Of a stretch of 64,000 nucleotides of DNA, positions 38,126 to 63,702 are shown in pieces. The DNA is from a virus (taxonomy: Duplodnaviria > Caudoviricetes): IMG/VR virus record IMGVR_UViG_3300032243_000867, positions 192,001 through 256,000 of that record; one strand, 5' to 3'. The first letter of the stretch is position 1; every line of letters starts with the position of its first letter. The translations under genes were made by a program, and so were the position numbers. Under the pieces are notes generated by a model. The model worked only from the letters and a program-made list of their open reading frames with translations. It was not told the origin of the DNA and made no database searches.

Positions 38126-38136
38126 ACAGGTGAACA

Positions 38137-38286: not shown

Positions 38287-38298
38287 GGAAACACGAAC

Positions 38299-38694: not shown

Positions 38695-38767
38695 GCACTC
38701 CGTCTGAGATGCGGTCAAACACCTGATCAGTGGTTTGCGGTGACTGCCCGATAACCCGACCGTAGGT

Positions 38768-39908: not shown

Positions 39909-39930
39909 CACTTCACCATACGGGGCGGGG

Positions 39931-40533: not shown

Positions 40534-41483
40534 AGGGAGAAGAAGTCAAGGACATTTTCGTCCGTCGCCTTGTCGAACACTCCCCCCGGATACCGTGGGT
40601 CCACGGGACCGATCTCTGCCGTGGCGCGCTTCGCATCCCCCTTCACGAACACCAGCACCATCTGGTGCCTCATGCCCGCCTTGCGGCTGGCCTCGAACTG
40701 GCGTGTCACCCGAAGGCGCAAGGTGCCTACGGAGTTCACGAGAACGAACTGGTTGTAAAACAGGGCCCCGGCTTCCTCAAAGGCCCTCACCGTTTCCCCC
40801 GTGAAGTCGAACATACTGCCGTCCTTCAGACGGTAGTTCCCCACGACGAACGCTGCGAAACGGTTGGGCTTGAGGTACTTCAGGGTGTGCTGGATGATCG
40901 TCCGGTAGGTGGCCACGAAGTCCCGGTGGGACATGTTGGACAAGTCCTTCGGGTCGTCGCTGTACACCTCCAAGTCGCCATAGGGGGGGCAGGAGAACAC
41001 GAAATCGTAGAGCGCCCCCTCGGGCAAGAGGGTAGGGATGTTCGAGCTATCCCCGCAAACCCACTTGACGTCGGCTTCAGGGCACACGACTTGGTATTGG
41101 GTGAGGTTCTCCGTCACCTGTTCCGGCCTCAAGTCCACCCCGGTATAGCTGCGGCCCAGCCTTCCAGCTACCACCCCACGGGTGCTGCCCCCTGCGAACG
41201 GATCGAGGATAGAACCCGTGTTGGGGGTGAACCAGCGGTACATCATCTCGCACAGCACCGGGTCGAACGTGCTGGTAGTTCCAGCACTCTCGAACTGGGA
41301 CTGGAGGAAGTCCTCTATCTCCTTATCGCCGTAGGTAAGGGCTACGTCACGGCCTGACGCACTGTTGATGCCCAACTCATCCCACAGCCTCACCCGAGCG
41401 CGCCACGGACCTTGAACGGTGTCCAAGACGCTGAACGGTGGAATGATGAATCTGTCGAACAGGGCCCCACTTTTCTCGTCCAT
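40530..41483 (-). CDS. DNA amino-methyltransferase (N4/N6)
   Basis: PPFSVLD, STFDPVLCE, ILDPFAGGSTRG, DFVFSCPPY. Confidence 0.88.
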   Translation of the reverse strand: MDEKSGALFDRFIIPPFSVLDTVQGPWRARVRLWDELGINSASGRDVALTYGDKEIEDFLQSQFESAGTTSTFDPVLCEMMYRWFTPNTGSILDPFAGGSTRGVVAGRLGRSYTGVDLRPEQVTENLTQYQVVCPEADVKWVCGDSSNIPTLLPEGALYDFVFSCPPYGDLEVYSDDPKDLSNMSHRDFVATYRTIIQHTLKYLKPNRFAAFVVGNYRLKDGSMFDFTGETVRAFEEAGALFYNQFVLVNSVGTLRLRVTRQFEASRKAGMRHQMVLVFVKGDAKRATAEIGPVDPRYPGGVFDKATDENVLDFFSL

Positions 41484-42364
41484 CACTTCACCAGCCTCGG
41501 AAGAGTTACGCCTGTCTGCCCTTGATACTTGCCCTTGCGGTCGGCGTAGGAGGTTTTGCAGGGGGAGGGGGATCGCAGGAAGATGAACTGACACGCGCCC
41601 TCGTTGGCGTAGAGCTTCGCGGGCAGGGGCGTGGTGTTCGAGAACTCCAGCGTGACGTACCCTTCCCACTCGGGTTCCAGCGGGGTCACGTTCACGATGA
41701 TGCCGCACCGGGCATAGGTGGACTTCCCGACGCACACCACCAGCACGTCCCGGGGGATGCGGAACCGTTCGACGGTGCGGCCCAGAACGAAGCTGTTGGG
41801 CGGGATGATCACGTATCCCTCGGTCGCCCGCACATCTACGAAGCCTCGGTCGTCAAAGCCCTTCGGGTCGATCACGGCACCGTAGGTGTTCGTGAACACC
41901 TTGAACTCGTCGGCCACCCTCGCGTCATACCCGTAGGAACTCACCCCGTAGGACAGCACCCGTTGATCGTCGCGCTTCGAGACTTGCGAGCTCTCATAGG
42001 GGGTGATCATCCCGGCTTGGGCGAGCGCGGTGATCTCGTGGTCTGGGAGGATGCCGGGAGCGCCCTTGGGGAACTCGACCTTCGCATCGCCGTCCACGGG
42101 ACGAAAGCGTTCTTTCAGCATCTCCCGCACGTCCTCCAGCTTCGCCACCACCTCATCGCGCGCATCCTCGTCCGCCTCAAGCTCTTGAAGAGCCGACTCG
42201 ATCCCCTCAAGGGCGCTCTCCCCGTTGGCATCTTCGGCCTCCAGCACGTTGTCGAGGGCTTCCTGCGCGCACTCCTCAAACGTGCGGTTGCCCATCAAAA
42301 ACTGCGTGAAGGCGTAGTCCGTAAGCGGGTTGATTTTTTCGGCCCAGTAGCGGATGTCCCTCAT
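41483..42364 (-). CDS. dcd: dCTP deaminase with an acidic N-terminal extension of about 100 aa
   Basis: [52 protein letters not shown]; GGAGG RBS. Confidence 0.93.
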
Positions 42365-47052: not shown

Positions 47053-47282
47053 GCCCCGCCCCCGTTCTTCATTCTCTCCCTCTGCTCCAAGGCGGCTTCC
47101 AGCTTGGACCGGCTCTCCGCGAGTTCCGTCTGAAGTAGTTCTCGGAGCTTCATCAGAAGTTCTCGGTTCTTCTGAATCGTCGGAAGCTCGTTGATGTCTA
47201 CGGGTTGGGTCTCCACCCATCGGGCATCTTCGGGCTTCAGCCCAAGAGCCTCTAGCCTCTTGAGCATTTCGGGGTCGATCAC
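47049..47282 (-). CDS. Small coiled-coil protein
   Basis: Coupled start; heptad C-terminus. Confidence 0.6.
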   Translation of the reverse strand: MIDPEMLKRLEALGLKPEDARWVETQPVDINELPTIQKNRELLMKLRELLQTELAESRSKLEAALEQRERMKNGGGA

Positions 47283-50200
47283 GGCAGCTTCTCCACGGAC
47301 TGTACGGTAAGCAGGGCTCTCTCAGCTTCGGCTTCGCGCTTGGGGCGTTCGATGTCGAAGCGGCGGATGCTTTCTAGGCTACCCGTCACGCGGTTCACGC
47401 GCAGGTCCAGCCATGCGTACCGGGTCGCGCGGAGCTTGTCCCGCCCGTCGAGGGCTTCATTCACCCGGTCCACCAGCACGGGTCGCCCCACTCCGTTCGA
47501 GAGGTCGGCATACGGGGTCACGGGGAGTGCCGCGTAGCGCGGCCCCACGGTGTCCAGCCGGTAGTCAAGGCACCAGAAGCGGCGGTCGAGGATAGAGAGA
47601 CAATCCCGCACGTTCGAGAACGGCGATACCGTCCAGTTGCCGATCAGCCCCAAGAGGTACGGGTTGGTGAGCAGCCCCAGACCGCTTTCGGGGTCGGTGG
47701 TCAACCCGAGGTCGGTGATGTGCTGGTCGCGTTGGAACAAGAAGTACGTCCCGTACTTGAACCGCACGGCGCGGATCTCTTCCATCCACGACAGCATTCG
47801 TTCGCGCATGGAAAGGATGAGCTCGACCGTCTTCGAGGAGAGCAGGGAGGTCGGTCGGATCACCCGGTACGCGAAGGGCTCGACGGACTTGAACGTGGTC
47901 GTGTACGAGTTGCCCACGGGCGGGGCGGTCTCGCGCAGGTCCATCTGCCCTTCCGTACCGCCCGTGAGCCCGCTGGCGTGGACAGTGGGGTAGACGGTGT
48001 AGGCGTTCGTGCCCGATCCGAAGGTCACGTCCCCGCCGTTGTTGCCCGCGAGTCCTCCGATGGCTTCGACGGTGAGCTGGGTAGCCGTGCGGGAGACGAC
48101 CCGGTAGTAGCCCCGGTTGTCGTCGGCGCGGGCGGGGCTTCCCGCTGCGTAGTTCGCCCTACCCGTCACGGCGTTGTCGCCGTAGGGGCGTCGCCCGTAC
48201 TGCGGCGGGGTAGTAGAACCCGCGGGGGTGGTAAGGGTTCCCGCCGGGTCGATGACGACGATGTCGCCCTCAGCTACCCCTGCCGCCGTGTAGTTCACCG
48301 TGGTGTCGGTGTCCCCGATCTTGTTCGTAGCCGGGGCGCGTCCGCCCGTTTGTGCCACGAGGTTCGCGGGTCTGTTGATCAGCACCCGGTCGGTCGCGTA
48401 GCCGAGAAGTTCCTCGTTGGATTGCTCGTGCGGGACGGGCGGAACCTTCAGGTACACCTCGAAGCGCGCACCGGGGGCGACCGTCACCTTGCGGGACAGA
48501 GTGAGGGTACGGGCTCCCGTGACCTTCACCACCTCTGCCCGTGCGGCGATCACCCCCGAAGCGTTGATGAAACGCACCTCGTCGCCGGGGTTCACGTTCA
48601 CGAGCTTGCTGGTGAAGTCGCCCAGTTGGGTAGCGGTTCCGCCCACGGTTGCCACGGGGGGCACCGCGCCGTCCACGGCGTCGGCGGTGAGAACCCCGTA
48701 CCCGCCCGAAGCGGTGACGGTGGAGACGATGCCACGGCGGATCTCGTAGCTGTACCGCAGGGACAGCAGGGCTTCCGCGAACGAGTTGCCGAGGTCATGG
48801 AAGCGGCGCGGGCGGCGCACTTCGATCTGGCCCACCTCAAGGTACGAGTTTCCTGCTACCGGGACGCTGGTCATGTACGTGGTGAGGCGACGTACGCCGA
48901 CGCGGGACGTAGTGCTGGTGTTGCCCGCGTCCACGACGTTGCGATAGATGGGGTCCGCGAGGGTGTTGCCCGTGCGCGGGAACGAGGGCTCGACGTAGAT
49001 GCCCGCCGCGCCCGAATAGTCCACCGTCCAAGCGTCACCGGGCAAGAAGCACCGCGCACCGTCGATGGCGAACGGCGGAGGGTACACGCCCGTAGGGGTG
49101 TGCAAGCGGTCCCAATCGGTGCCCGCAGTGTAGATACTGGTGATGTCCATCACGCCGGGGATCTCGTCGTACACGGGCGCGGACAGGGGTAGGAACGTCT
49201 CCGAGGTGAGCTTGATCTTCTCGTACACGTCCACCTTCGAGGTGGCTGGCGGAACGTAGCTGAGAAACCCGAGCGTACTGGCCGTCCAATTGAGGGTGTT
49301 CGCGCCGCGCGTTGCTTGAAGGGTTCGCAGCCCGTAGGCTGAGTTCGGGCTCGCGCCGTCACCGCCGTTGCAATAGCCGGGGAGGTTCTCCGGGATGCCG
49401 TCCCCGTGCGGGTTCAGCGGGATCATCGTGAAGCCCGACACCTTCAGGCCCGCCTGTGCGGCGGTTGCGAAGGCCGCTCCCGAGATGGCGAGCCCCTGCC
49501 CGTCTTGGTAGTTGTTCAGCCCCGTGAAATCCATGGTTACGGGGTTGAAGCCCGTGTAATCGGCGCTCACGATGCTGGAGGCGAACGTCGCGGGGACAGG
49601 GCTATTCAACCCCGCCTCGTTGACGATCACGAACACCCGCCCAGCGGGTGGGAAGGTGTGCGTTTGTGCGGTGGCCGTTCCCGCCCAGTTCTTCGACGGC
49701 GGGAGGGAAGGGATCTCCGACACGATCAGGTTCGTGGCGGTTGCCGTTACCACCGTGGGGAACGCCACCGGGAGCCAGCCCGAGGAATAGTCCCCCGCGC
49801 CATCGGGCACGGTGTACGTCACGTCGCGCCGTTCCAACCCGCCGCCGGAAGCGATCACTCCCCGTACGAGGTGCGTTCCCACCTTGCCGTTCTGCGCGGC
49901 CTTCGTGTACGCCGGGTCTTCGCTGTTCGACCGAAGGGTTACGATGTCGCCGGGGAGCACGCTGGCCGTCGCCCCCGTGAGCGTGGCCGAGGGAATGAAG
50001 CGGTTGTCCCCCCATGAGAACGTGTGCGCCACGGGCGTGCCGTCGATACGGTCCGTGTACACGTCGGCGGTGAGGATCGCGTTCGTGGTGTTTTGCCGTG
50101 AGGACGGGGCGGCGCTGAACGTGATGTTCGTACCCGGGATAGCGATATTCCCGTGCCCCTCGAAGGGCATGGTCTTCAGGGCGAACACCCCGGTGCCCGT

Positions 50201-53200
50201 TTCGGCCCCCACACCGAAGGTGCCCGTGGTGAAGGGCGCATAGTTACGCTGGAGGAACGTGAAAGGGACGCCCCCGTTGACGTTCGCAGCGCGGTTGACC
50301 GTGTTGTAGATGTCGGCGGTGCCTACGGGGACGGTCGTTTCGTAGGTGGACAGGGCGCGCACCACTTCGAGGCGGCACTCGACGGACTCCGCCGCCGGGT
50401 TCACCGCCCCGCGCTCGCGGGCGCTGCGGGTGTCCACGGGGCCGGATACGGTCAGCCGGTCACCCTCGATAACGTAGGCGGCGGACTTCACCGCTACGAG
50501 GTCGATGGTGAAGTCCAGCGGGTCAAGATCGGTCACGCCTCCGTAGGCGGCGAAGTCGAACACCGGGACGGCGGTTTCGACGGTGAGCTTCGTGGTGTTG
50601 AAGAAGCACGGGCCTACGCTTGGAACGAACGACCCGCCGTTGTCGCCCGATACGTCGAACACGCACGCCGTGATAACGGGGTTCGGGGCGTTCAATCGCA
50701 TGATGAACGTCGCGGCGGGAGCGAACGTGCCCGAAGCCTTCATCACGTTGATGCGAATTTCCGAAGGCTGGTCGGACGAGGTGAAGAAGGTGTTGAACCC
50801 GCCCGTGGGGGGGACGGCCCCGCCGCCGCCGTTGTTGTCGTCGAACACGAGGTTCGGCACGCCGATGAGCTCGAACGTCGTGCGGTAGTTCGGCCCGAAG
50901 GGGGCCTGCTTCACCCGGATGCCCGTGGTATGGGGAGCGGGAAAGGGCGGGTCGGCTTCGATGAACGTCTGGATCGCCGTGACGTTCAGGTCGATCAGGC
51001 TGTTCTTGTCGGTGCGAGAGATGAACCGTGGGGGTTCGATGACCTTCGCCCCGTAGTCCACCGCCCCCACGGTGAGGATGCCCTGCGACCCGTTGGGGAG
51101 ACCGCCCGTGCCTTGTTGGACGAACACGAGGTCGTAGGGGTTCACCGTGCCCACGCCCGAGTGCGCGGCGAACGGGGGGTCAAGGGTGACCGAAGCCCGA
51201 AGGGCGGCGGGTGCGGTAGGGAGGCTGTTGACCGCCCCGGCGTTGTCGAGGATCTCGTCCGGGTACGCGGCTTCCAGCGCGTACGGCGGGTACCCCGGGG
51301 CGGGCGGGTTCGCGGGCGGCGTCACCGTATCTACGGTGTAGAAGTCCACGCCCGCCGTGAAGGCGTCCCCAAGAACGGCGAGCTCCGTGGGGGCGATCTG
51401 GTAGTAGGGCAGGGAGTAATCCCCCGAGTCGAGACGGGATGCACCCCGTAGGGCCGGGATGTTTGACGGGCTCACGTCTCCGTTCTGGAACGTCACCCGA
51501 GCTTGAAGGTTGCGAAGCGGGGCGGGGGGCTTCTGGCCGAAGATTTCCTTCAGCCCGAAGAGGTTGGGGTCGCTGAACGACGGCAGGGTGATGTCTACTA
51601 GCTCGCCCGAGCGCCCGTCCAACCCCACGTCCGTTCCCGTGCGGTAGGCGGGAAGGGACTGCGAGAAGGCCGCGAGTTCGGCGTTCGTCGGCGGGTCGGA
51701 CACGGCGGGGAGCACCGCGCCCGTGGTAGGAACCACGAACAGGGTGTCCCCCTTCTCGACCAGCGCAGCGGTGAGGGGCACGCCGTTCGCCGGGGCCGTG
51801 AGGCGCACGAGATTGCCCACGTTCGCCGCGGTGATCAGGACCGTTGCCCCCGCCGCGTCGTAGGTCTTCAGCGTGACGTAGCACCCTTGGAGGACCGTAT
51901 CGACGAACACCCCCGCATACACGGGTTGCCCGCCCACGGTGATTGTCGTGCCCGCGTAGCCCAGCCCGTAAACCGCCCCGTCGGGGGTTCCCAGTGATAG
52001 TTGGTCGCCGGGGGCGAAGGGCGGCGTGTGAAGGCTGGGGTCGCCCGTAGACAGGTCGTACAGGCCCGAGGTGCCCGTGCCGTTGGAGTACAGCAGGGCC
52101 GTGTCGGGCGTGCCGTTGGACTTCAGCGGGAACTGATCGAGGGGGAGCACCGTCGCCGCGAAGGCGGGTCGAATGACCGGGGGGACGGCGCTGAGGTAGC
52201 CCGAGGGCGAGAACGAGAAGATGCGGGCGCGGGCGAGACGATCTTGCACCGTGGCCCCGAGCACCGACGTGAGGTTGCCCCGCACGGGGTTGCTCAACCG
52301 CGCGATGGCTTTCCCGTTGGTGGACTGAAGGTCGATGACGGGCGGCGACGCGAACAGGTCTAGAAGCAGCTTCCCGTAGCTGTACACCCCGTTGTTGCCC
52401 GTGGTCGGGTCGTACCCGATGCCGGGGTCGGTGGTAGTAAACGCTTCCGTGCGTTCGGGGTACAGCCGCGAGAAGGCCGAAGGCTGGGACAGCCCCCGGT
52501 ACACGCCGTAGGAGGACACCTTGAAGTGGATGAGCCCCGTGAGGGATACCGTGGTGCCGGTGAGGCCGTTGAGCACAACGTCGTCAACGTCGTTCTTGAT
52601 GGCGCGGTATTGGGCGTTTTGAAGCGTTCCGAGGGCGTTCGCGGAGAGGGCCAGACCCTCGACCGCCCCGCCCGTGAGCGTCGCGCTGTACGGGTTGACG
52701 ATGGGGTCGGTGGCGAGAAGCGCGACGGGCACCGTGCGGTAGCCGTTCCAGACTTCGTTCCACACGTTGCGGGCGTTGACCGCCCCAGTGATGCCGTCCT
52801 CGTATCCCGGCGGCGTCCACGGGTCGCCCACCCCCATCCACATACGGAGCTTGCCGTCGCGGTCACCCACGGGGTTGCCCGCGATGTTCTCCAACACCTG
52901 CTCGAACGAGGTGATCACCCCGTTGAAGTAGCGGAGGAACGTACGGGTCACCCGGTCACGGGACACGAGGTCTTGCCGCTCGGATGTCAGCCCCGCCGTG
53001 CCTTGCGTGGACGGGGAGTTCTTGGGGAATCCCCCCACCGAGGGGTTCGTGCCCGAGGCGTTGCGGGTGACCCCCTGCACGATGCTCCGCGCCGTCTCCG
53101 TGATGTACGCGGGGAGAGGTAGCGACCGTGCATAGAAGCTATCGGGCGAATCGAACGTGTAGGTGGCGGTGAGGGTCGCACCCAGCCTCCCGTTGCTATC

Positions 53201-56200
53201 GCTGGGCGGGTCGATGTAGCCCGCCGATGCGCTCACCCGTGGGTACTGCACTTTGCCCTGAAACACGAACGGGGCGAGAGTGCCTTGCACGGTGCGGTAG
53301 AACTGCAACGAGGACAGGGCCGGGAGGCCCCGCGTGCGCGGTTCCAGCAGGGTGAGCGTGCCCGCCGAAGGGTCCAGTTGGTAGTCTCGCCCTTCCGTAA
53401 GCGTCGCGCCGGGGACGGTGCCTTCGTACAGGACCACCTCGTAGGGCTCGGTGCCAACGAACGCGCCCGCGCCGATGAACACCGTTGCGCCTTCCGAGTA
53501 CACCGGGCGCACGGAGATGCGGACGTAGTTCGGGCTCATTCCCGAGGTCCAGGTCATCTGGATGGGGGACGGCGACCCGAGGGTGATGTCGGTGAACGCC
53601 CCGTCTACGAACTCTCCCTTGGCGATGAGGAAGGGCACCCCGAAGAGTTCGAGGACGTGACCCGTCACCGCGTACCGGGTGAGATCCCCCTCGAAGCGCA
53701 CGACGTTCTGGCCCTTGGTGAGGGGCTGGAAGGCCGGGACGCTAGCCAACCCGTAGGCCGCGGTGAGCAGGGGCAGGAACCCCGCGTCGGCACCCGTCGC
53801 GACGGGCGACCCCACGGGGTCCACCGTGGGTGTGATGGCCCGGTCGGTGAGGAGGTTGATGGGCGGTTCGCTAGGGGAGAGCGTGCCCACGCTCTTCGTC
53901 GGCGTCGGGTACACCGTGACGGTGGTGATGTCCGCGGGAAGGCCGCTGTAGACGGACGCCTTGATGTAGGTGAGGTAGTTGCTGATACGAAGAATGCGCC
54001 CCGGCACCATGTCCGCAGTGCGGTCGCCGTCGAGATTGAACGTCGAGACGTTGGCTTCAAGGCGGAACGGCGGACGCCACACGGGGCCTTGAGACACCGT
54101 GTAGGAGGTTTCGCCGCCCGAGGCTTCGTACACCCCGTAGGTGATCAGCACCTTCGTCGCGGGGTCGTTGACGGCTTTCACCAATGAGATGGTGTTGTTC
54201 GACGGGGTGACCGTGCAGCCCTTGGGGAACCCGTACGTCACCAACGTCGCCCCCACGTACACCGAGGGCTCTACGTCTGTGTCGATGGTGCGCCCCACCG
54301 CGTTGAACGAGTAAAGCTGCGAGCTGACGCGCGCCGCGGCTTCGCGACGGACGATCACGGGCAGGAACTCCGTCACCTGCACGGGTTTCCCGTCACTGTC
54401 TAGGTACAGCGCGCCCGAGTCGGGCACGGCGCGGTAGTAGGTGACCTCGACCAGTTGCCCGGTCTGTACCGGGCGCTCGAAGGAGAACGCCCCGAGGATC
54501 GGGTTCAAGAACACCGTCTCGAAGGTCTGGAGGTCAACGAGGTAGATGCGGTCGGTTCTGAGGGACAGCCCCGCAACGCTCACCGCACCCGTAAACGGGC
54601 TGATCTCAGCTTCACCCGCCGGGACGTTCGCAGACGGCAGTACCTCTTCGCGGTACGTCACCGTGGCCGATTGATAGTTGGCCTTCACCGTCGCGCCGAA
54701 GCGGAGCTCCCCGTCCGTCGTGCGGTACTGCACTACGTTCGCGGGGATGGGGGCGAGGAAGTTCGGCACGGGCAAGAGGTCCACGCCGTGGGCGAACACC
54801 TTGGTGCCCACGACAACGCTGAACGACCCGGTGGTGAAACGATCCCCCGCCGCGGGAACGTTCAGCGCCCCGTCTGCGACGGACCCGAGAACGGAACTGG
54901 TGAGAATGGTCGCCGGGAAGTTCGCGCCTGTGAGCCCGTACCGCACGGCGAGGGAGCGACCCGAGTTCGCCGTGGGGAGGTCAACGGGCGACGGGGCGGC
55001 GGGGGCCGTGCCCAGAAGGGTCAGCAACCGCACTTCGTACGGTTCGCTGGAGAGGTGGTTGAAGTCCCGGTAGACGGCATCGCCCAGCACGGCGGGGTTG
55101 ATCGTTCCCGGCGCGACCCCGTCATAGAGCTCCCACGCGACGTTGCCCGTGCTGGCGGCGATGAAGTCCGGGGTGACGGTGATGGTGGGGGCGGTAGAAG
55201 CCGTGACCGTGTACGAGCCCGCGTTCGCGCCCGAGGTCACCTTCAAGCGGTCGCCCGCGCTGGCCGTGATGGTGAGGGACGTATCGGTGAGAGTGTTGGG
55301 AAGGGTGATCGCCCCACGGTAGCCCGATTGCTTCAGTTCACCGATGCGGGTGACCAGCACCGCCTCGCCCGAGCCCGAAGGCACCAAGAAGTCCGTCCCG
55401 AGGGTGAGCGTCTGCGCCGCCCCGCCCGTCGCGGACACCTTGAGGTATCCCCCCATCGCCGGGTAGAAAGTGGACGGAACCACCCCCGCGTTGCCGAGGT
55501 TGATGGATGAGACGGGCGATAGAACCTGCCCCGCGAACGAGAAGGTGGACAGCCATCCGAAGCGTGACTGGTCGAACTGGTAAACGGCGTCCTTCCAAGG
55601 TTTGACGGTGGTGCTGAGACGCAGCGTGTTCGGGGATGCAACGCCCGACAGGGAGAAGAACTCCCCCACGTCGTAGCCCGCGATGTCCTCGCGCGGCGGG
55701 TAGCTCAGGAGCTGGTACGGGATGGTTTGAAGGTCTTCCGATAGGGCCGCGTCCGTCACCCGATAGGTAGCCCGCACGTCGGGGGCGCTTTGCGACCCGT
55801 CGAGATTGTTCGGGCTGCGGGACAGCCCGAAGGCGAGGCCCGTATCGGGGAGCCAGTTCGGGTCCGTGGCGGTGTGCGTTCCCGCGCTGGGGTTGGAGAC
55901 GCGCCACCCGGGCGGGTACCCCATCGCGCGGCACCCGTCCTCGTTGAAGCCCACGGCCACGGTGCCCGTGGGGTTGTTCGATGCGATGTACAGGTAGCCC
56001 GAGAGAACGCCCGCCGTGCCCGCCCCAGCCATGATGGCATTGAGGGCGACGGCCACCGTCGCGGCGGGTACGTTCGTTCCCGCCGCGGGTGAGTAGTTGA
56101 AAGCGGTGCCGTCCACCGAGAAGGTGAACGTCTCGGTGCCCGCGAAGGTGAACGTGTCGCGGGTGCGCGAAAACACCCTTGCACCGTCGGGGTACGAGGC

Positions 56201-57961
56201 CGGGGTGAGGAGGGCCTGGACGAAGTACAGGGTTTTGCCGCTGATGGCTTGAGCAAGGGCGTAGCCCACCCGTACGATCCCCGTGTTGAGGGCGACGTAA
56301 GCCGTGTCGAGCGGGAGGGAGAAGATGTCCGTGGGAAGGTCGGCGTCGTAGTTGACTGTGACGATCTTGGCGATGCGCCCCGCACGGGTAAACAGGTAGG
56401 CGTCACCGAAGCCGGGGGAAAGCCTCTCCACCAGCCCCGACGACAAGGGTCGGGGTTGTACGGGCAACGTGGGGTTGGGGGCGTTGCCTGTACCGTCGGG
56501 CACCCGGACGATTCCCGAGATGCCCGTGCCGGGGAGCCCCGCGGCGGCGGGGATCACATAGTCCGATCCCCAAGAGGTGAGGGTGACGGGGGCCTGTACG
56601 GGCTGCGGGTAGAGGTTGAGGGCTACGCCGTCGTACCGAAGGCTCGCGTCGAGGTACAGCGGGTCGAAGGCGGGGGCGGCGGGGTTGGCCTTCGCCACGT
56701 CCGTTGGGTCCAGCTTCACCCGCCCCGTGGAAAGTGACACGCCCGCTTCGCCCGGATTGACGGCGAGGCCCGCGAGGGCGGTTTCGTTGGCGACGGTGAT
56801 GACGGTGAGGGGTGCGCGATTGCCGATGCGAAGAATCGGTCGGTCCGTCGGGCCGGGGACGGGAGAGATGTAGTGCGGACCGCCCAGCAAGGGGCCGACC
56901 ACGCCGTCGTTCATGGCCGCGAAGTCGCGGGGTGAGTACCAGAGGGCCTCGCCCTCGTGCGCGGCGATGAACGCCGGGTTCCACGCGATCTCTCCCGAGT
57001 CGCTACCGATCACGCCCGCGAGGGCCGGGGACACGGAGCCGAAGTCATAGCTGGCGTTCGCCACGTCGTCGGCTACCACCAGCACGCCGCTGTACGAAAC
57101 CCCCGTCACCACGGGGTAAGAAGCCTCGTCGGGCGAGTTTCCGAGGCGCAGCATCGCGTACTGCCCTGTGGTGGCCGTGCCCGGAAGGTAGCTGCCGAGG
57201 GGTGCGGTGGGGACGGGCGACAGGGTGTACCGGGAGCCTGCCGAGGACAGGAGCTTGCCGAGGTTCTTGGTTGCCCCGCCCTTGAAGGGCTCCCATTTGC
57301 GGTGCGCGGCGTTCCAGCCGAAGCGGGCCGCACCGGGATCATTCCGCGTCCAGTTGAACGTCGCGGGGCCTACCGTGTAGGTGACTGAGGTGAAGGTGTC
57401 ACCGCGCGAGGCGCTCACGGCGACGGGCGCAGAAGCCGGGACGTTTACCGCCGCGCGCACGGTGGCGGTGTCGTTCAGTTTGACCGTGCCCGACACCGGG
57501 TCGAGGGTGAAGTCTGGAGACGTAAACGTGACCTTGGTGGAGGTCCCGCCCCGCACATAGACCATGCTGGCGACCGAGGCGACGTTCGCTCCACCGTCGT
57601 CGGTGACTACCACCCGCTGCGTGCCGTCCGTGAGAACGCCCGACGTGGGCACGGTCGGGTCGTTGACCGTGAGCGTGCCCGTGGGGATTGCCACCGTGCC
57701 GTCCGTGGACGTTGTGCCGGGGGCGACGGTCAGCGGTCCCGAGGTGTTCGCCCACAGCAGGTACTCAACGGTCTGCCCGCTTTCACTCAGCGTCGCGCGG
57801 TACCGCGCGCCGTTGATGTCCGTGACCGTGGCCGTGGGGTACGCAGGGGTGGGGGAGGTGAACACCGCACGGGACACGCCCGAGGAGACCTCGCCCGTCG
57901 TGTCCGCGTTGCTGGTCGAGGCCCGAGCGCCCGGAAGTACCTGACCGTCGAAGTTGCCCAT
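47279..57961 (-). CDS. Giant virion structural protein, 3560 aa
   Basis: Uninterrupted 10.7-kb ORF with native codon bias; Thr/Gly/Pro/Val beta-rich; CTATCG box upstream. Confidence 0.8.
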   Translation of the reverse strand: MGNFDGQVLPGARASTSNADTTGEVSSGVSRAVFTSPTPAYPTATVTDINGARYRATLSESGQTVEYLLWANTSGPLTVAPGTTSTDGTVAIPTGTLTVNDPTVPTSGVLTDGTQRVVVTDDGGANVASVASMVYVRGGTSTKVTFTSPDFTLDPVSGTVKLNDTATVRAAVNVPASAPVAVSASRGDTFTSVTYTVGPATFNWTRNDPGAARFGWNAAHRKWEPFKGGATKNLGKLLSSAGSRYTLSPVPTAPLGSYLPGTATTGQYAMLRLGNSPDEASYPVVTGVSYSGVLVVADDVANASYDFGSVSPALAGVIGSDSGEIAWNPAFIAAHEGEALWYSPRDFAAMNDGVVGPLLGGPHYISPVPGPTDRPILRIGNRAPLTVITVANETALAGLAVNPGEAGVSLSTGRVKLDPTDVAKANPAAPAFDPLYLDASLRYDGVALNLYPQPVQAPVTLTSWGSDYVIPAAAGLPGTGISGIVRVPDGTGNAPNPTLPVQPRPLSSGLVERLSPGFGDAYLFTRAGRIAKIVTVNYDADLPTDIFSLPLDTAYVALNTGIVRVGYALAQAISGKTLYFVQALLTPASYPDGARVFSRTRDTFTFAGTETFTFSVDGTAFNYSPAAGTNVPAATVAVALNAIMAGAGTAGVLSGYLYIASNNPTGTVAVGFNEDGCRAMGYPPGWRVSNPSAGTHTATDPNWLPDTGLAFGLSRSPNNLDGSQSAPDVRATYRVTDAALSEDLQTIPYQLLSYPPREDIAGYDVGEFFSLSGVASPNTLRLSTTVKPWKDAVYQFDQSRFGWLSTFSFAGQVLSPVSSINLGNAGVVPSTFYPAMGGYLKVSATGGAAQTLTLGTDFLVPSGSGEAVLVTRIGELKQSGYRGAITLPNTLTDTSLTITASAGDRLKVTSGANAGSYTVTASTAPTITVTPDFIAASTGNVAWELYDGVAPGTINPAVLGDAVYRDFNHLSSEPYEVRLLTLLGTAPAAPSPVDLPTANSGRSLAVRYGLTGANFPATILTSSVLGSVADGALNVPAAGDRFTTGSFSVVVGTKVFAHGVDLLPVPNFLAPIPANVVQYRTTDGELRFGATVKANYQSATVTYREEVLPSANVPAGEAEISPFTGAVSVAGLSLRTDRIYLVDLQTFETVFLNPILGAFSFERPVQTGQLVEVTYYRAVPDSGALYLDSDGKPVQVTEFLPVIVRREAAARVSSQLYSFNAVGRTIDTDVEPSVYVGATLVTYGFPKGCTVTPSNNTISLVKAVNDPATKVLITYGVYEASGGETSYTVSQGPVWRPPFRLEANVSTFNLDGDRTADMVPGRILRISNYLTYIKASVYSGLPADITTVTVYPTPTKSVGTLSPSEPPINLLTDRAITPTVDPVGSPVATGADAGFLPLLTAAYGLASVPAFQPLTKGQNVVRFEGDLTRYAVTGHVLELFGVPFLIAKGEFVDGAFTDITLGSPSPIQMTWTSGMSPNYVRISVRPVYSEGATVFIGAGAFVGTEPYEVVLYEGTVPGATLTEGRDYQLDPSAGTLTLLEPRTRGLPALSSLQFYRTVQGTLAPFVFQGKVQYPRVSASAGYIDPPSDSNGRLGATLTATYTFDSPDSFYARSLPLPAYITETARSIVQGVTRNASGTNPSVGGFPKNSPSTQGTAGLTSERQDLVSRDRVTRTFLRYFNGVITSFEQVLENIAGNPVGDRDGKLRMWMGVGDPWTPPGYEDGITGAVNARNVWNEVWNGYRTVPVALLATDPIVNPYSATLTGGAVEGLALSANALGTLQNAQYRAIKNDVDDVVLNGLTGTTVSLTGLIHFKVSSYGVYRGLSQPSAFSRLYPERTEAFTTTDPGIGYDPTTGNNGVYSYGKLLLDLFASPPVIDLQSTNGKAIARLSNPVRGNLTSVLGATVQDRLARARIFSFSPSGYLSAVPPVIRPAFAATVLPLDQFPLKSNGTPDTALLYSNGTGTSGLYDLSTGDPSLHTPPFAPGDQLSLGTPDGAVYGLGYAGTTITVGGQPVYAGVFVDTVLQGCYVTLKTYDAAGATVLITAANVGNLVRLTAPANGVPLTAALVEKGDTLFVVPTTGAVLPAVSDPPTNAELAAFSQSLPAYRTGTDVGLDGRSGELVDITLPSFSDPNLFGLKEIFGQKPPAPLRNLQARVTFQNGDVSPSNIPALRGASRLDSGDYSLPYYQIAPTELAVLGDAFTAGVDFYTVDTVTPPANPPAPGYPPYALEAAYPDEILDNAGAVNSLPTAPAALRASVTLDPPFAAHSGVGTVNPYDLVFVQQGTGGLPNGSQGILTVGAVDYGAKVIEPPRFISRTDKNSLIDLNVTAIQTFIEADPPFPAPHTTGIRVKQAPFGPNYRTTFELIGVPNLVFDDNNGGGGAVPPTGGFNTFFTSSDQPSEIRINVMKASGTFAPAATFIMRLNAPNPVITACVFDVSGDNGGSFVPSVGPCFFNTTKLTVETAVPVFDFAAYGGVTDLDPLDFTIDLVAVKSAAYVIEGDRLTVSGPVDTRSARERGAVNPAAESVECRLEVVRALSTYETTVPVGTADIYNTVNRAANVNGGVPFTFLQRNYAPFTTGTFGVGAETGTGVFALKTMPFEGHGNIAIPGTNITFSAAPSSRQNTTNAILTADVYTDRIDGTPVAHTFSWGDNRFIPSATLTGATASVLPGDIVTLRSNSEDPAYTKAAQNGKVGTHLVRGVIASGGGLERRDVTYTVPDGAGDYSSGWLPVAFPTVVTATATNLIVSEIPSLPPSKNWAGTATAQTHTFPPAGRVFVIVNEAGLNSPVPATFASSIVSADYTGFNPVTMDFTGLNNYQDGQGLAISGAAFATAAQAGLKVSGFTMIPLNPHGDGIPENLPGYCNGGDGASPNSAYGLRTLQATRGANTLNWTASTLGFLSYVPPATSKVDVYEKIKLTSETFLPLSAPVYDEIPGVMDITSIYTAGTDWDRLHTPTGVYPPPFAIDGARCFLPGDAWTVDYSGAAGIYVEPSFPRTGNTLADPIYRNVVDAGNTSTTSRVGVRRLTTYMTSVPVAGNSYLEVGQIEVRRPRRFHDLGNSFAEALLSLRYSYEIRRGIVSTVTASGGYGVLTADAVDGAVPPVATVGGTATQLGDFTSKLVNVNPGDEVRFINASGVIAARAEVVKVTGARTLTLSRKVTVAPGARFEVYLKVPPVPHEQSNEELLGYATDRVLINRPANLVAQTGGRAPATNKIGDTDTTVNYTAAGVAEGDIVVIDPAGTLTTPAGSTTPPQYGRRPYGDNAVTGRANYAAGSPARADDNRGYYRVVSRTATQLTVEAIGGLAGNNGGDVTFGSGTNAYTVYPTVHASGLTGGTEGQMDLRETAPPVGNSYTTTFKSVEPFAYRVIRPTSLLSSKTVELILSMRERMLSWMEEIRAVRFKYGTYFLFQRDQHITDLGLTTDPESGLGLLTNPYLLGLIGNWTVSPFSNVRDCLSILDRRFWCLDYRLDTVGPRYAALPVTPYADLSNGVGRPVLVDRVNEALDGRDKLRATRYAWLDLRVNRVTGSLESIRRFDIERPKREAEAERALLTVQSVEKLP

Positions 57962-57988
57962 CGCGATACCTTACGCGGGGCGATAGGT

Positions 57989-59306: not shown

Positions 59307-59800
59307 TGGAATCCTCGATTCTTGGGGTTAGGTTCAAGGCACTTGGCCTGATTGCATTACGCCCTACGGGACGATCTTCCACGACCCCTCGTCGTGGGGG
59401 ATGATGAACCCTTTGGCGGTGAGGTGCCGAGTCATATTGCAGATTTCAACCCCGAGGGAACGGGGGAGAATCTTGGGGTTCACCGCACGCCGATACCACC
59501 CGGCAATGTCCTCGCGGGTGAAAGGCTTGGACCACTTGGCGAAGTGATTGACCGCTCTCTGGTAACGGGGCGGAAGGCGGTAGGGGTTGTACCGATTGCG
59601 TCTGGGCGGGACGGGCTCCGTGACTGGGGCGGGAATCGCCGCCGCCGCAGGGGCACCCGCACCCGTCACCTGTGTGACTTTGAGCAACAAAGCAATCTCC
59701 TCGCGGTAGCGGGCGAGGGTGGCTTCGGCCTCCGCGATGTCGGTTTTCAGTTGCTCGACGCGGCGGGTGACGACTTCGTTGATTGCGGTAAAGGCGCTGG
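59191..59800. repeat. About 100-bp near-identical direct repeat (59191-59290 and 59701-59800)
   Basis: Shared GGCTTCGGCCTCCGCGATGTCGGTTTTCAGTTGC and GCGGCGGGTGACGACTTCGTTGATTGCGGTAA. Confidence 0.9.
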
Positions 59801-59855: not shown

Positions 59856-60242
59856 TCACATTTCTGTAGGCCCATGCAGGAACCACGGGGTGAGGGCCGG
59901 GACGTACTCGACCTTGGGGTGTGGGGGCTCCGAGCCCGTGCGCTTCTTGACTTTGGCGAGCACGTCTTCAAGGGACCGCCCGACGTGGACGAAATCGTCC
60001 AAGGGCCACACGAGGTGGTCGCCGTAGTGCCAAGCGGTGCCCGCGCGCACGGGGACCATCACCTTCTTCGCCCCCGGTTGGCACTCCGCGAGGTTCCACG
60101 GAGACACCTGTCCCATGCGCTTTCCCCCGCCGGGTTCGGCCCATGCGGGGCAGTAGGGGCACGTCCAGAAATCTGTGTTCTTGTAGAGCTTTTCACAGGG
60201 AGTGCCACACAACGGGCACGTCCAGAAATGATCGCAGTTCAT
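59856..60242 (-). CDS. Double zinc-ribbon small protein
   Basis: FWTCPLC..FWTCPYC. Confidence 0.6.
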   Translation of the reverse strand: MNCDHFWTCPLCGTPCEKLYKNTDFWTCPYCPAWAEPGGGKRMGQVSPWNLAECQPGAKKVMVPVRAGTAWHYGDHLVWPLDDFVHVGRSLEDVLAKVKKRTGSEPPHPKVEYVPALTPWFLHGPTEM

Positions 60243-60457
60243 AGGCCAACTTTCGACGGGTCACGGGGTTCCCTTCCCCGAAGGGCGCACCGAAACCCGG
60301 CATCGTCGAGACGGCACGCAGGCCCGTACGTGTCGCGAGACGCGGCGCGCACCCTCGACGGTACGTTGCTGTACCAACCGCCGCCGCGTTGGACGCGAAG
60401 GCGGGTGTCGGTCGGGTTTGTTTCGTAGGGAGCGGGGGTCTTTCGTGATCTTGCCAT
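60239..60457 (-). CDS. Mini CLec/FGE variable-region protein A, 72 aa
   Basis: RVQRGGGW..PSRVRAASR..GFRCA; GGGCGTAAC upstream. Confidence 0.75.
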   Translation of the reverse strand: MARSRKTPAPYETNPTDTRLRVQRGGGWYSNVPSRVRAASRDTYGPACRLDDAGFRCALRGREPRDPSKVGL

Positions 60458-60506
60458 ACCCCCGTTACGCCCTACAGGTCTTCGGGGTCTTCCAACATCG
60501 CCCCCG

Positions 60507-60950
60507 TCAGAACGTCGCACGTCGCACGTTGGCGAAGGGTAGATTCGTGAGGTCGGCCTCTACGCGGGGAGAGTACTCGGTGGAACCGCAGAAGGGGCAG
60601 GGCTCGCCCGTGTCATGGGCGACATGGTGACACTGCGCGCAGAAGTGCTCCGTGATGCACCCCTCGTCGTCGCACGCATAACACCGCTGTCCCACCGTGT
60701 GGATGTACGTCCGGGTGGCGATAGCGCCGCACTCGCCGCACTTGGGGAGGTGCTGGCGCAGCAAGGAATCCATCGCCTCGACACGGCGTACCAACTCCCG
60801 TGCGATCTCCAAGATCTCCGGTCCCGAGGAGTCCACGGGCGCACCGAGGGCTTCACCGATGGCGATGATCTCGTCCAAGTGACGGGCGTCGTCCCGCAGG
60901 GCTTGTTCCAGCAGTTCTTCTTGGGGGGAGTGAATCCGTCGCGGGGTCAC
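60507..60950 (-). CDS. Multi-CxxC zinc-finger protein
   Basis: CGEC, CYAC, CAQC, CPFC. Confidence 0.65.
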   Translation of the reverse strand: MTPRRIHSPQEELLEQALRDDARHLDEIIAIGEALGAPVDSSGPEILEIARELVRRVEAMDSLLRQHLPKCGECGAIATRTYIHTVGQRCYACDDEGCITEHFCAQCHHVAHDTGEPCPFCGSTEYSPRVEADLTNLPFANVRRATF

Positions 60951-61300
60951 GGTTCACCCCGCTTGGCCCGCAGCTTGGCGCAGTGATCTTCCCACACCCT
61001 CGCGGACTCTTCGTCTGACAGGGGCTCTACTTCCACGGTCACCTTCACCCGCATCACCGGGAGGGCCTTGCGGGCGGTGAGTTCGCGGTACTCGTCCCTC
61101 AAGTCCTTGAAGTAGCCGTCCTCGTCCACCTCGTCCTCAAACGCCATAGGGGCCGACGCACGGACGGTTGAACCCCCTGCGTCGAGGACGAAGGCGCTGA
61201 TGCCCTTCATCACGGTCTCGTCGGTCCCGAGCCCGTAGATGTAGTTCTCCTCGTAGTCGGCCACGCACAGGGCGTGGCCCTCAAACTTGCTCGTGCCCAT
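60947..61300 (-). CDS. Acidic hypothetical protein
   Basis: Coupled to neighbouring genes. Confidence 0.55.
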   Translation of the reverse strand: MGTSKFEGHALCVADYEENYIYGLGTDETVMKGISAFVLDAGGSTVRASAPMAFEDEVDEDGYFKDLRDEYRELTARKALPVMRVKVTVEVEPLSDEESARVWEDHCAKLRAKRGEP

Positions 61301-61839
61301 CACTTCGCACGATACACAGAGAGCCCGTCGTGAATCCCCGACCACTGAGGAAGGCAGACGCACTGCTCCTCGCTCCAGTGCTCGTCGAGGATGCGATGGA
61401 ACTCGTCGTCGGCGGTGCAGCCCCCGGAGCCCTCACCGACGTACACGAGGGTGCTCCCGCCCGCCTCCATGAAGCGAAGGAGGCACTCCGTGCCCATCGG
61501 CGTGGCATACGGGGGCCACACCAACATGAGCGCGTGGTCCTTGTGCGCGCGGGTGATTACGTCGCACGTCCCCTCCGACACGGGGTGCCAGAGCTTGCCC
61601 GTGGCCCCATCAGAATGGTCTCCCGGTTCGCGGTCGTAGCACTCGACGGTGCCGCCCGCTTCGGCAATGAGGCTGGCCCAGTAGCCGTTCCCGGCCCCAA
61701 GCTCGATGACGGGTTTGCAGAGTCCGACGATGGTCGCGATGGCACGGTCGTCGGGGATCGCCCATGCGTACTCGGCCACGAGGGCGGCACGGGCACTCCA
61801 CCCTCGCTCCCGTTGGGCGCGGAGTTCGTAGGCGTTCAT
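61300..61839 (-). CDS. Class I SAM-dependent methyltransferase-like protein
   Basis: YAWAIP, VIELGAGNGYWA, LMLVWPP, LVYVGE..CT.D. Confidence 0.75.
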   Translation of the reverse strand: MNAYELRAQRERGWSARAALVAEYAWAIPDDRAIATIVGLCKPVIELGAGNGYWASLIAEAGGTVECYDREPGDHSDGATGKLWHPVSEGTCDVITRAHKDHALMLVWPPYATPMGTECLLRFMEAGGSTLVYVGEGSGGCTADDEFHRILDEHWSEEQCVCLPQWSGIHDGLSVYRAK

Positions 61840-62033
61840 GCACGCACCGCGTGACCTTTGCAGGGCTCGTTTGCCGCCGCTTGCCCCGGTTCTGTTGACA
61901 GGTAGTACAGGGTGTAGTGAGCCCCGCACTTCTCACAGCAGATACGGGTCGGGAGGCTGGACCCGCCGTGGAGCTCCAGCCCCGGCTTCACCCTCCAGAC
62001 GTGCGCCCCGTCGTCGATTTTGGACTCACTCAC
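61836..62033 (-). CDS. Small zinc-ribbon protein
   Basis: CEKC; coupled GTGA start. Confidence 0.5.
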   Translation of the reverse strand: MSESKIDDGAHVWRVKPGLELHGGSSLPTRICCEKCGAHYTLYYLSTEPGQAAANEPCKGHAVRA

Positions 62034-62221
62034 GGTTTTACTTTCCTCTCACATCCCACACGCGCGCACCGAAACCCCAGGTTGTCGAACCGGTACGTCG
62101 GACCGTCCCCGCGACGGTCCGCGACGCGCACCCTCGACGGATAGCTGACGCCCCAGCTACCGCCGTGGCTGAGGCGGTGAAGGGTGTCGGAGGTGGGTTG
62201 CTTGGTGGTGGGGGGGTTCAT
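62030..62221 (-). CDS. Mini CLec/FGE variable-region protein C, 63 aa
   Basis: RLSHGGSW..PSRVRVADR..LGFRCA. Confidence 0.75.
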   Translation of the reverse strand: MNPPTTKQPTSDTLHRLSHGGSWGVSYPSRVRVADRRGDGPTYRFDNLGFRCARVGCERKVKP

Positions 62222-62229
62222 ACGGGTAC

Positions 62230-62400
62230 TTACGCCCGGGGTTCCCTTCCCCGCAGCGCGCACCGAAAACCGAGGCTGCTGTCCCGGAGCGTCGGCCCGA
62301 TCCTGTTACGGAACGCGACGCGCACCCTCGACGGATCGCGGTCGTCCCAGCCACCGCCGCGGAAGACGCGGAGGCGGGTGTCGGTCTTGGACTCACTCAC
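62230..62400 (-). CDS. Mini CLec/FGE variable-region protein B, 56 aa
   Basis: RVFRGGGW..PSRVRVAFR..LGFRCA; GTGA-coupled. Confidence 0.75.
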   Translation of the reverse strand: MSESKTDTRLRVFRGGGWDDRDPSRVRVAFRNRIGPTLRDSSLGFRCALRGREPRA

Positions 62401-62828
62401 GGCTTCACCACGGGCCACGGCACGAGGTTGCCGTCCCAATCAATCGACCGCCAGTACCACACATGGAGTCGGGGGTTCTTTCGCTGGTAGGCGGCGTACT
62501 TCTTGGCCGTCTCGCCGCCCATCACCCGGCAACACGGGCCACCAGAGCGGTGGTCGAAGCTGACCAAGAAGTCCCCTCCGTTGTCGTCGTGCGCGTCCAC
62601 CTCCTCGTCGGTGGGGGGCACCGTGCGGTAGTCCTTCGCAGTGAGGGTGGCCTCTCGCAGCACCGTGCGGGCATCGAGCACCTCGATGCCCAAGAGCTTC
62701 CCGTCCGCGTCGTAGTCGATCACGAACGGGCCGTGGGTGTCCCGTCGCACGGACTCACTGGGACGGGTGCCGTCCGGGTTGACGTGCAGGTAGGCGGCGT
62801 TGGCTTCGGCGTCGTATGTGAGTCTCAT
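62397..62828 (-). CDS. DUF2283-domain protein with C-terminal extension
   Basis: MRLTYDAEANAAYL..VIDYDADGKLLGIEVLDA. Confidence 0.8.
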   Translation of the reverse strand: MRLTYDAEANAAYLHVNPDGTRPSESVRRDTHGPFVIDYDADGKLLGIEVLDARTVLREATLTAKDYRTVPPTDEEVDAHDDNGGDFLVSFDHRSGGPCCRVMGGETAKKYAAYQRKNPRLHVWYWRSIDWDGNLVPWPVVKP

Positions 62829-62852
62829 GGCTCTTTTAGAAGATACCGCGGG

Positions 62853-63014
62853 TCATCGCGGCATCTTTCCCGGTAGGTGCGTGCGAAAGCCCAGCGCACT
62901 GTTACATCCCGAGGGCACGCGCGAATGGCGAGCAGACGCGAGCACCCACGACGGATCGTCGTAGAGCCAAGGGCTACTGCGGAAGACGCGAAAGGCTTTG
63001 ACCGACGGCTTCAC
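62853..63014 (-). CDS. Mini CLec/FGE variable-region protein D, 53 aa (diverged; not in the ORF track)
   Basis: RVFRSSPWLYDDPSWVLASAR..SALGFRT; GTGA-coupled. Confidence 0.65.
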   Translation of the reverse strand: MKPSVKAFRVFRSSPWLYDDPSWVLASARHSRVPSGCNSALGFRTHLPGKMPR

Positions 63015-63520
63015 GGCTTCGCCCACGCCTCCGCGAGCACCTCCGCAGGGGCCACGTCACCGTGTCGGGTGGCGAGGTCCGTGGCCCACTCCATCACCAG
63101 ACGCGGGTAATCCCGTGCCTCGGTCCCGTAGGGGACCAGCACCGCCGGGATCACCCCCATCGGGTCGCCGCCGCACTCGCGCGCCGTGGGGTGATCGTAG
63201 GTATCGAACGCGGTGCGGGACGGGTCACCGGGCCACGGGATCTCCCCGGTCTTCGTCCACCCCCGCGCCACCAGCACCCGCCGCATCGCGTCGGGCGAGG
63301 TGGCCTTGAGGGAGTCCTTGTCGAGACCCGCGAGGGCACGAACCGCACGGAGCAACTGCCCCTGCCCCGCCGCCTCGTGACGGTAGAGGGCAGCTTGGGC
63401 GCGGTGTACCGTGGCTTCACAGTAACGGAGGTCACGGGGTGTCAGCTTCCCTTGGGCAAACAGTTCCGTGCCTTCCGCGAGGTCTTCGAGGGCTTGGGCG
63501 AGGGGGAGCTTCGGGTCCAT
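63011..63520 (-). CDS. Hypothetical protein
   Basis: ATG 7 nt after GGGCGTAAC. Confidence 0.65.
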   Translation of the reverse strand: MDPKLPLAQALEDLAEGTELFAQGKLTPRDLRYCEATVHRAQAALYRHEAAGQGQLLRAVRALAGLDKDSLKATSPDAMRRVLVARGWTKTGEIPWPGDPSRTAFDTYDHPTARECGGDPMGVIPAVLVPYGTEARDYPRLVMEWATDLATRHGDVAPAEVLAEAWAKP

Positions 63521-63702
63521 GCCCGACGTTACGCCCGTGGATGGGAGTCGTGACTGCGATTGAGGGTGGGACGTTCTACTACGAGAACGAACACGGGTCG
63601 GAAGTAGCTGGCGGTGACCCTACGGCATGGTGGCGATGAACTAGGGGGTCATCCGGCTGGCCCATGCCAACCCGGCGTTGCGACCGCACCTGTTGCCGTT
63701 GC

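Follow-up and report, generated by a model that had tools for sequence, protein, structure and literature searches.

Stand-alone phage genes for a lectin-type variable region and a matching diversity-generating retroelement template in a bacterial genome

Background

Why would a phage keep genes that encode only the variable end of a binding domain, and where would their variation come from? These questions are raised by four short open reading frames (ORFs), here called mini-genes A to D, in a stretch of viral DNA of 64,000 nucleotides (the window) that represents bases 192001-256000 of the 265,895-bp IMG/VR virus record IMGVR_UViG_3300032243_000867 (G000), which has a G+C content of 64% and a CheckV completeness estimate of 59%. 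ORF calls confirm all four on the - strand of the window: A at 60239-60457 (ATG start, 72 amino acids), B at 62230-62400 (GTG start, 56 amino acids), C at 62030-62221 (ATG start, 63 amino acids) and D at 62853-63014 (GTG start, 53 amino acids). A first-pass annotation of the window had read them as stand-alone genes made only of the variable region (VR) that a diversity-generating retroelement (DGR) rewrites, here the C-terminus of a domain of the formylglycine-generating enzyme (FGE) and C-type lectin (CLec) type. That core reading is supported by a template repeat (TR), a reverse transcriptase (RT) and mismatches centred on adenines.

Mini-genes encode only the end of an FGE-type domain

As the annotation had claimed, none of the four has the large N-terminal part of the fold. 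Each encodes only the last ~50 residues of an FGE/CLec domain, and for none of them is a complete FGE domain found in one polypeptide, the domain being divided between two genes. A, B and C match the Pfam FGE-sulfatase family (PF03781) solely at profile positions ~204-255 of 255, with E values of 1.2e-6 for A (positions 204-254), 5e-6 for B and 1.7e-6 for C, and with scores of 26.8-28.9 bits against a curated cut-off of 23.3. D falls below the Pfam threshold, yet a hidden Markov model (HMM) of the family gives it 69 bits (E 1e-19); A scores 112 bits with the same model. The three codons after the TGG of the shared scaffold are NNC in all four genes, as was noticed at the outset, and the 15-mer CCGTCGAGGGTGCGC, described as invariant in A to C, has three exact occurrences in the window, one per gene. 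A, B and C are referred to below as class I units, and D, which has a GFRTHLPGKMPR tail, as a class II paralogue.

A six-frame HMM search revealed 26 such stand-alone mini-genes in the record, encoding 48-72 amino acids and arranged in six clusters (genome positions 5018-5635, 36941-42077, 70870-71568, the four of the window, 261342-262135 and 262886-263948). In 25 of the 26, the start has an NTGA arrangement, that is, an ATG or GTG start followed by A, and within arrays the TGA of this start is also the stop of the preceding unit. The exception is A; products with an NTGA start have 48-63 residues and A has 72. A further 41 stand-alone homologues of 54-124 amino acids lie on metagenome contigs of up to 131 kb, and the same mini-gene arrays are found on related contigs.

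A template and reverse transcriptase in a bacterial genome

One genome per prokaryote species was scanned with a 23-nucleotide scaffold pattern, yielding 28 loci, three of which encode members of the family. Two of these loci, L122 and L117, are contigs of G009, an 8.1-Mb freshwater metagenome-assembled genome (MAG) labelled "uncultured delta proteobacterium KT_bin-2017". The third, L131, is a 1349-bp contig of a Terriglobia MAG with two tandem phage-type mini units at positions 1006-1347, and is probably a fragment of a related phage that was binned with a bacterial MAG. A complete DGR occupies L122:1-2470. An Avd gene, of which the end is present, is accompanied by an RT (Pfam RVT_1, E 3e-14) that bears YMDD and LGNLTSQ motifs; the TR (L122:1150-1285) follows immediately after the RT, and a fused FGE target with its VR is on the other strand. 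The first-pass annotation had proposed a search for an RT and an AAC-rich template, and had counted their absence everywhere among the grounds for dismissing the reading; both are present in this bacterial MAG, and neither was found in the phage records examined.

The relationship between this TR and the phage units is that of a DGR template to its variable regions. The TR holds AAC, ACG, GAA and GAG exactly at the variable codons of the phage, and rare synonymous codons of the scaffold are also the same. For example, the best unit in the genome, unit 261509, differs from the TR at 12 of 27 adenine sites and at 0 of 95 other sites (Fisher p 1e-9), while units 263059 and 263235 have 13 and 11 adenine mismatches with 3 and 4 others, respectively. 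In the window, A differs at 15 of 26 adenine and 6 of 92 other sites (p 6e-8), B at 17 of 27 and 12 of 97 (p 4e-7), C at 18 of 27 and 19 of 97 (p 7e-6) and D at 19 of 26 and 19 of 83 (p 6e-6). The homologous block in A is ~118 nucleotides long (60283-60400, - strand) and aligns without gaps to L122:1163-1280, and in most class I units the homology begins and ends at the same TR positions. Non-adenine mismatches grade from 0 to ~30 over a set of ~55 distinct units drawn from several phage contigs, and 25 of these units have at most 4. The TRs of other bacterial DGRs of this family have 26-28 non-adenine differences from this TR, and the nearest TR or VR among 30 relatives of G009 is 82% identical, which together indicate that the match between the phage units and this TR is specific. 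With regard to a 3' element (IMH) that might direct homing, the sequence ...CGGGG is common to the phage units and the host VRs, and the TR has ...CGAGG at that point. At the 5' edge, the units have the TR's own letters (CTC before CGCGTC) and not those of the host VRs, a distinction that comprises only 3 nucleotides.

The bacterial context of this DGR is chromosomal. G009 carries its own VRs of the TR, including a target in which a caspase domain (Peptidase_C14) is fused to an FGE domain (L117:4284-5999), and none of its 25 FGE-domain ORFs has the N-terminal domain of the phage scaffold protein described below. RT homologues with 64-73% identity lie on long chromosomal contigs in a bAvd-RT-TR order with TIR-FGE or kinase-FGE targets, and several of these contigs are labelled Polyangiales, Polyangiaceae or Sandaracinaceae at NCBI. 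An 81%-identical RT is likewise adjoined by a kinase-type target and bAvd, a neighbourhood without a match to the phage. In two other samples the start of the TR is identical behind 98%-identical RTs, and the contigs break inside the repeat.

Searches for an equivalent in the phage were empty. No RVT_1 match was obtained in the record or in three related phage records (G000-G003, ~593 kb in total), and neither tblastn with phage RT nor a motif scan over all related loci gave a hit. Among the units themselves none behaves as a template, the best ordered pair having 9 of 16 mismatches at A, and no AAC-rich or non-coding copy was detected in the record by a DNA scaffold scan or nhmmer. In IMG/VR, patterns of the reconstructed TR had no match and the RT had no close relatives, the best being 45% identical.

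A DGR-type codon signature

Mutagenesis at the adenines of a template leaves a characteristic pattern, which was evaluated in 26 distinct 33-codon cores chosen by their protein-level pattern only. At the 12 variable codons, entropy is 1.51, 1.26 and 0.23 bits at positions 1, 2 and 3, compared with 0.27, 0.18 and 0.39 bits at the conserved codons. Six of the variable codons are 100% NNC, versus 46% C at background third positions, and other codons change as xCG or GxG. Residue usage follows the same pattern: Leu at variable codons is CTC in 17 of 17 cases (47% in the background), Ser is AGC in 24 cases and TCC in one (AGC makes up 22% of background Ser codons), and K and M are absent. Residues K, E, Q, M and W account for 15% of residues genome-wide and are almost absent at these codons. 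The first-pass annotation had cautioned that high G+C at third codon positions explains part of the NNC bias; a compositional bias of this kind exists, but the NNC bias exceeds it, and the genome background cannot explain the pattern. Conserved codons lying between the variable ones are kept even at synonymous sites, including rare T-ending codons. Likewise, four-fold degenerate sites are 79% identical in the units of G000 and of the related record G001, versus 49% in their scaffold genes.

A conserved scaffold gene lacking its C-terminus

The remainder of the domain is encoded elsewhere in the phage. Only one gene of the record, encoding 289 amino acids, contains the N-terminal part of such a domain; it lies at genome 263930-264799 on the - strand (L001:8930-9799), 8 kb beyond the window, matches Pfam FGE-sulfatase at positions 12-193 and stops six residues past the GNVWEW motif. 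The first mini-gene of the adjoining array is coupled to the stop of this scaffold gene by an ATGA overlap in this record and by a GTGA overlap in the relative L007. Approximately 45 clusters of scaffold homologues with 43-94% identity also stop just after GNVWEW, most at ...STVHK, and are mostly 263-305 amino acids in length, with a few called shorter or longer. That a truncated scaffold should be conserved at identities as low as 43% is understandable only if the C-terminus comes from another source. Fused bacterial relatives reach only ~40% identity over half the length. A recoded stop behind the scaffold gene was considered and rejected: the stop is TGA or TAG across relatives, and the next ORF lies in another frame with an overlapping start of its own.

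The two gene products cover solved structures in a complementary manner, with the scaffold matching residues 135-245 and the mini-proteins residues 266-307 of 6muj, and residues 150-229 and 253-293, respectively, of Treponema denticola TvpA (2Y3C). The catalytic cysteine pair of FGE is absent, and variable residues other than Cys occupy the place of the LCHDSYC motif in alignments to Streptomyces FGE (6muj, 2q17). Structure prediction of the complex, which had been suggested as a check, gave an ipSAE interface score of 0.96 for scaffold residues 118-289 with A, versus 0.45 for the best of 3 controls, and A residues 19-61 lie in the predicted interface. The ipSAE mark was reached by 58 of 80 solved complexes and by 2 of 110 mismatched pairs, counts that are only rough, since our own alignments were used. 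Because the intact FGE fold is known, the model shows that A fits as the missing piece, not that the two proteins bind in the cell. These results suggest that the mini-proteins are probably a detachable C-terminal subunit of a split domain, the body of which is a separate conserved phage gene; the free peptide-sized binders envisaged at first are probably not what the phage makes, as the conserved split scaffold and the complex model favour the subunit role.

The N-terminal domain of the scaffold (residues 1-112) was modelled confidently, with a predicted local distance difference test (pLDDT) of 91, and consists mostly of beta strands with one helix. It has no fold match at E <= 0.001 in the PDB and AlphaFold cluster libraries. 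G001 contains, in addition, a second truncated scaffold type (L012:5378-6714) that ends ...WEWCDSLYYR, is ~51% identical and lies directly behind an A orthologue with the same leader, MARSRKTPAPYETNPTDT, and different variable codons. This second type was not seen in the sampled part of G000.

Diversity of the units among related phages

Comparisons among relatives distinguish two modes of evolution in the family. In class I, the units of G000 and L007 differ mostly at the first two positions of variable codons, while identity between these two is 94-98% for class II, which comprises D and four other units. The copy of D in G001 (L012:1226-1426) differs at 2 of 53 residues (counted by eye), although the scaffold gene of G001 is only ~51% identical to that of G000, and D is a conserved class II paralogue that is not diversifying. 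A distant relative of 392 kb, with a scaffold gene 66% identical, has 16 very divergent mini-ORFs with the RGGxW...GFR motif. Their retention implies that, with or without a DGR, the mini-proteins are preserved as proteins.

Array length and copy number vary among relatives, and further changes are visible at the strain level in assembled contigs of public runs, which constitute the population data used here. In contigs of run X4, from another lake metagenome, window positions 61775-62396 (a 65-amino-acid gene, C and B) are replaced by 604 other letters, and in runs X2 and X5 at least 309 extra letters are inserted in the region of D (62853-62892). The mini-gene loci are strain-level hot spots that break assemblies. 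A depth spike was also observed over the shared scaffold of A. Together with mosaic units described below, the differing array lengths and strain replacements indicate that recombination acts on top of templated variation.

Evolutionary scenarios for the mini-genes

The explanation that we favour is that the mini-genes are exchangeable tips of a split lectin scaffold, with class I written by a DGR whose RT is supplied by the host. Taken as a whole, our judgement on it is evenly balanced. A to D would be translated, and their products would complete a split FGE/CLec binding domain with the ~50 C-terminal residues that it lacks, the segment expected to carry the ligand-contacting variable residues. 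The body of the domain would be made once, from the conserved 289-amino-acid gene, and the 26 mini-proteins would be alternative partners for it, so that one body could carry many binding surfaces. The ~118-124-nucleotide block in A, B and C would derive from the cDNA of a TR identical or nearly so to that of G009. The phage would have no RT of its own, and during infection the host DGR would retrohome into those units that keep a VR-like 3' end, perhaps to this day. Indirectly in favour of continued homing are the low-mismatch units in several diverged phage lineages and the excess conservation at synonymous sites. Duplication and recombination would then shuffle the units, with decay increasing in the order A < B < C, and D would be an older class II paralogue under ordinary purifying selection. 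Among the options first listed for these genes, domesticated copies of DGR cDNA come nearest to this account. A bolder extension, which we put forward tentatively and think rather doubtful, is that the DGR which hypermutates the host's own caspase- or kinase-linked FGE "antigen sensors" rewrites the phage mini-genes with homing-competent ends, so that cross-genome mutagenic retrohoming renews the tips of the split scaffold, the tips perhaps acting as decoys or counter-sensors that mirror host immune receptors.

It should be noted that several observations weigh against this explanation. The non-adenine mismatches of B, C and D number 12-19, which means that these copies in the window are not recent, in agreement with the caution voiced in the first-pass annotation. 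Unit 41743 is a mosaic of the 5' part of unit 262880 and the 3' part of A, units 263235 and 263408 have one 3' half in common, and for some unit differences such mosaics seem to point to recombination rather than to fresh homing. Codon 9 of the core is GAA in the TR (L122:1196-1198); its second A varies freely among units, and its third A is unchanged in both host VRs and in 21 of 26 phage units despite four-fold degeneracy at that site in most variants, so that this adenine seems to be spared by mutagenesis. The high score of the predicted complex may stem from the model having learned the intact FGE fold. With the record ~59% complete, the absence of RT and TR from the phage is not proven, and the TR match is the one link between host and phage. 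Both phage and RT occur in freshwater or lake metagenomes (12 and 11 studies, respectively), with one study common to the two and no common run among those listed; run X1, the probable source of the window with 93% of its words, is not among the 21 listed RT holders.

The same facts bear on the alternatives. The phage itself might carry the same bAvd-RT-TR in the ~40% of its genome that lies outside the record, with the bacterial cassette being a relative or the donor, and the mini-genes would then be ordinary targets, though unusually numerous and split. This has in its favour the incompleteness of the record, the precedent of several non-adjacent targets within phage genomes (PMC5758913) and the breaking of assemblies at the TR/VR scaffold, which would tend to leave an RT-TR cassette on a short orphan contig. 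We consider it unlikely, given that RVT_1 is missing from all four phage records, that the closest IMG/VR RT is so distant, that the RT relatives and their bAvd-RT-TR synteny are chromosomal and bacterial, and that X1 is not listed as an RT holder.

Two further scenarios dispense with ongoing retrohoming into functional genes. The VRs could be fossils, captured from host targets or left by old homing, whose diversity arose via duplication, gene conversion and selection with no current retrohoming; the mosaic units, the variable copy number of arrays, the replacements and insertions among strains and the 6-19 non-adenine mismatches of A to D all speak in its favour. Units with 0-2 non-adenine mismatches exist, however, in several phage lineages with scaffold genes that diverge at 20-50% of their four-fold sites, which requires events later than the separation of those lineages, and the short 5' edge of the units is the TR's and not that of host VRs; we therefore regard fossil capture as improbable. 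Finally, the mini-ORFs might not be functional proteins at all; host cDNA might use them as neutral landing pads, or they might be decoys for it at the DNA level, and their frames would stay open because AAC-derived codons cannot become stops. The TR block by itself does account for much of the sequence conservation. Against this, starts, NTGA coupling and a leader and tail unrelated to the TR are kept in 25 of 26 units, the strongly conserved class II units are without TR homology, divergent mini-ORFs persist in the distant relative, and the truncated scaffold gene is conserved over the range of identities given above, all of which make such a role very improbable.

Local context of the mini-genes

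B is preceded by a gene for 143 amino acids with a DUF2283 domain (62397-62828, - strand; PF10049, E 2.4e-10), the stop of which overlaps the start of B (GTGA). The stop of a 169-amino-acid gene without a Pfam or PHROG match (63011-63520, - strand) likewise overlaps the start of D (GTGA). A and C are preceded by GGGCGTAA on the - strand (60465-60472 before the ATG of A, with 7 nucleotides between them, and 62230-62237 before C), and C starts 8 nucleotides downstream of the TAA stop of B, all of which agrees with the coupling and motif originally noted. Another GGGCGTAA copy precedes gene 63011-63520 (63529-63536, - strand). The motif occurs 10 times in the window against 1.9 expected, 9 of the 10 on the - strand, a count that none of 100 shuffles attained; it may serve this phage as a signal for translation or reinitiation. 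The sites span window positions 2798-63536, including 59357-59364, and lie 7-8 nucleotides before an ATG where inspected.

The 17-mer CGGGG-AAGGGAA-CCCCG has only two exact copies in the window, in A (60264-60280, - strand) and in B (62237-62253). It was said to lie just 3' of the region and to be able to form a hairpin. The copies are exact, but they are located within the ORFs, where they encode RGREPR using the rare codons GGA AGG GAA. A hairpin can form from this GGGG/CCCC inverted repeat, with a stability no better than that of shuffled sequence (z -0.1 to -0.8). The 17-mer contains the purine-rich AAGGGA, which in arrays lies ~10 nucleotides ahead of the start of the next unit and could be a ribosome-binding site. 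C ends ...CERKVKP, a tail variant that is also present at genome 71090-71401.

A baseplate wedge protein (window 12663-16157, + strand; phrog_6, E 2.5e-30) and a tRNA nucleotidyltransferase-like protein (4051-6183, + strand; phrog_2244, E 9e-33) are jumbo-phage features, and these PHROG matches support a jumbo-myovirus nature for the record. Its longest open frame encodes 3,563 amino acids (47282-57970, - strand). DNA and protein comparisons with named phage records gave no match, and Pfam and PHROG searches of the genes neighbouring A to D gave no clue to function. The window stretch was present in no run recorded as RNA, run X19 being probably DNA.

Comparison with known systems

DGRs are understood as self-contained cassettes, in which RT, template and targets travel in one genome. 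The phage described here departs from this picture in three respects: the variable region stands as an independent gene, with 26 copies in a record that is itself far from complete; the lectin-fold body is a separate gene, with a truncation conserved across a deep jumbo-phage clade; and the only matching template found is on a bacterial chromosome, beside an RT whose family diversifies putative anti-phage sensors (PMC10907252). Should the host element write the phage genes, one diversification engine would be common to a virus and a bacterial hypermutation system, and the TR match would double as a link to the host at the sequence level. Should the split scaffold truly pair with many tips, it would be a natural combinatorial binder design. 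In full-text literature searches, neither a split DGR target nor a match between phage VRs and a bacterial TR was found reported.

Silent-cassette antigenic variation is known from the pilE/pilS system of Neisseria. The phage arrays resemble it in consisting of partial copies that cover only the variable part and undergo mosaic exchange, and differ from it in that the phage copies have their own starts and translational coupling. A pilS-like donor-cassette model, one of the options first listed, was rejected, since the unit adjoining the scaffold gene lacks the flanks common to the others, making a single expression site fed by gene conversion unlikely.

Among DGR targets, the mini-proteins are similar to TvpA and the category "b" targets of Wu et al. 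2018 (PMC5758913), in which the VR makes up the last ~40-50 residues with an RVxRGGSW...GFR motif and AAC-derived NNC codons, and they share with TvpA the absence of the catalytic Cys pair. In contrast to TvpA-type targets, VR and body are here separate genes, with 26 VR genes per body and no RT or TR found in the record. The same survey describes eight targets in tandem in Stenotrophomonas, seven at remote positions in Treponema and targets as short as 44 amino acids, so that there is precedent for a TR with many targets, for action in trans and for very short targets; it reports neither a TR in one genome matching virus VRs nor a conserved domain split (PMC5758913). FGE-type lectin domains were not found in a survey of 224 jumbo phages (PMC7824862). 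The DGR of Bordetella phage BPP-1 (Mtd) and other phage DGRs are comparable in that a CLec-fold phage product varies at adenine-templated codons. BPP-1, however, has its own avd-TR-brt beside a single tail-fibre-tip target, whereas here no RT was found and the units form arrays dispersed among small genes. The bacterial DGRs whose targets are putative antigen sensors in conflict systems, with caspase, kinase or TIR domains joined to CLec domains (Dore et al. 2024, PMC10907252), differ in turn from the units described here, which lie in a phage, are split and have no effector domains, but it is a TR and an RT of that kind that are cognate to the phage units.

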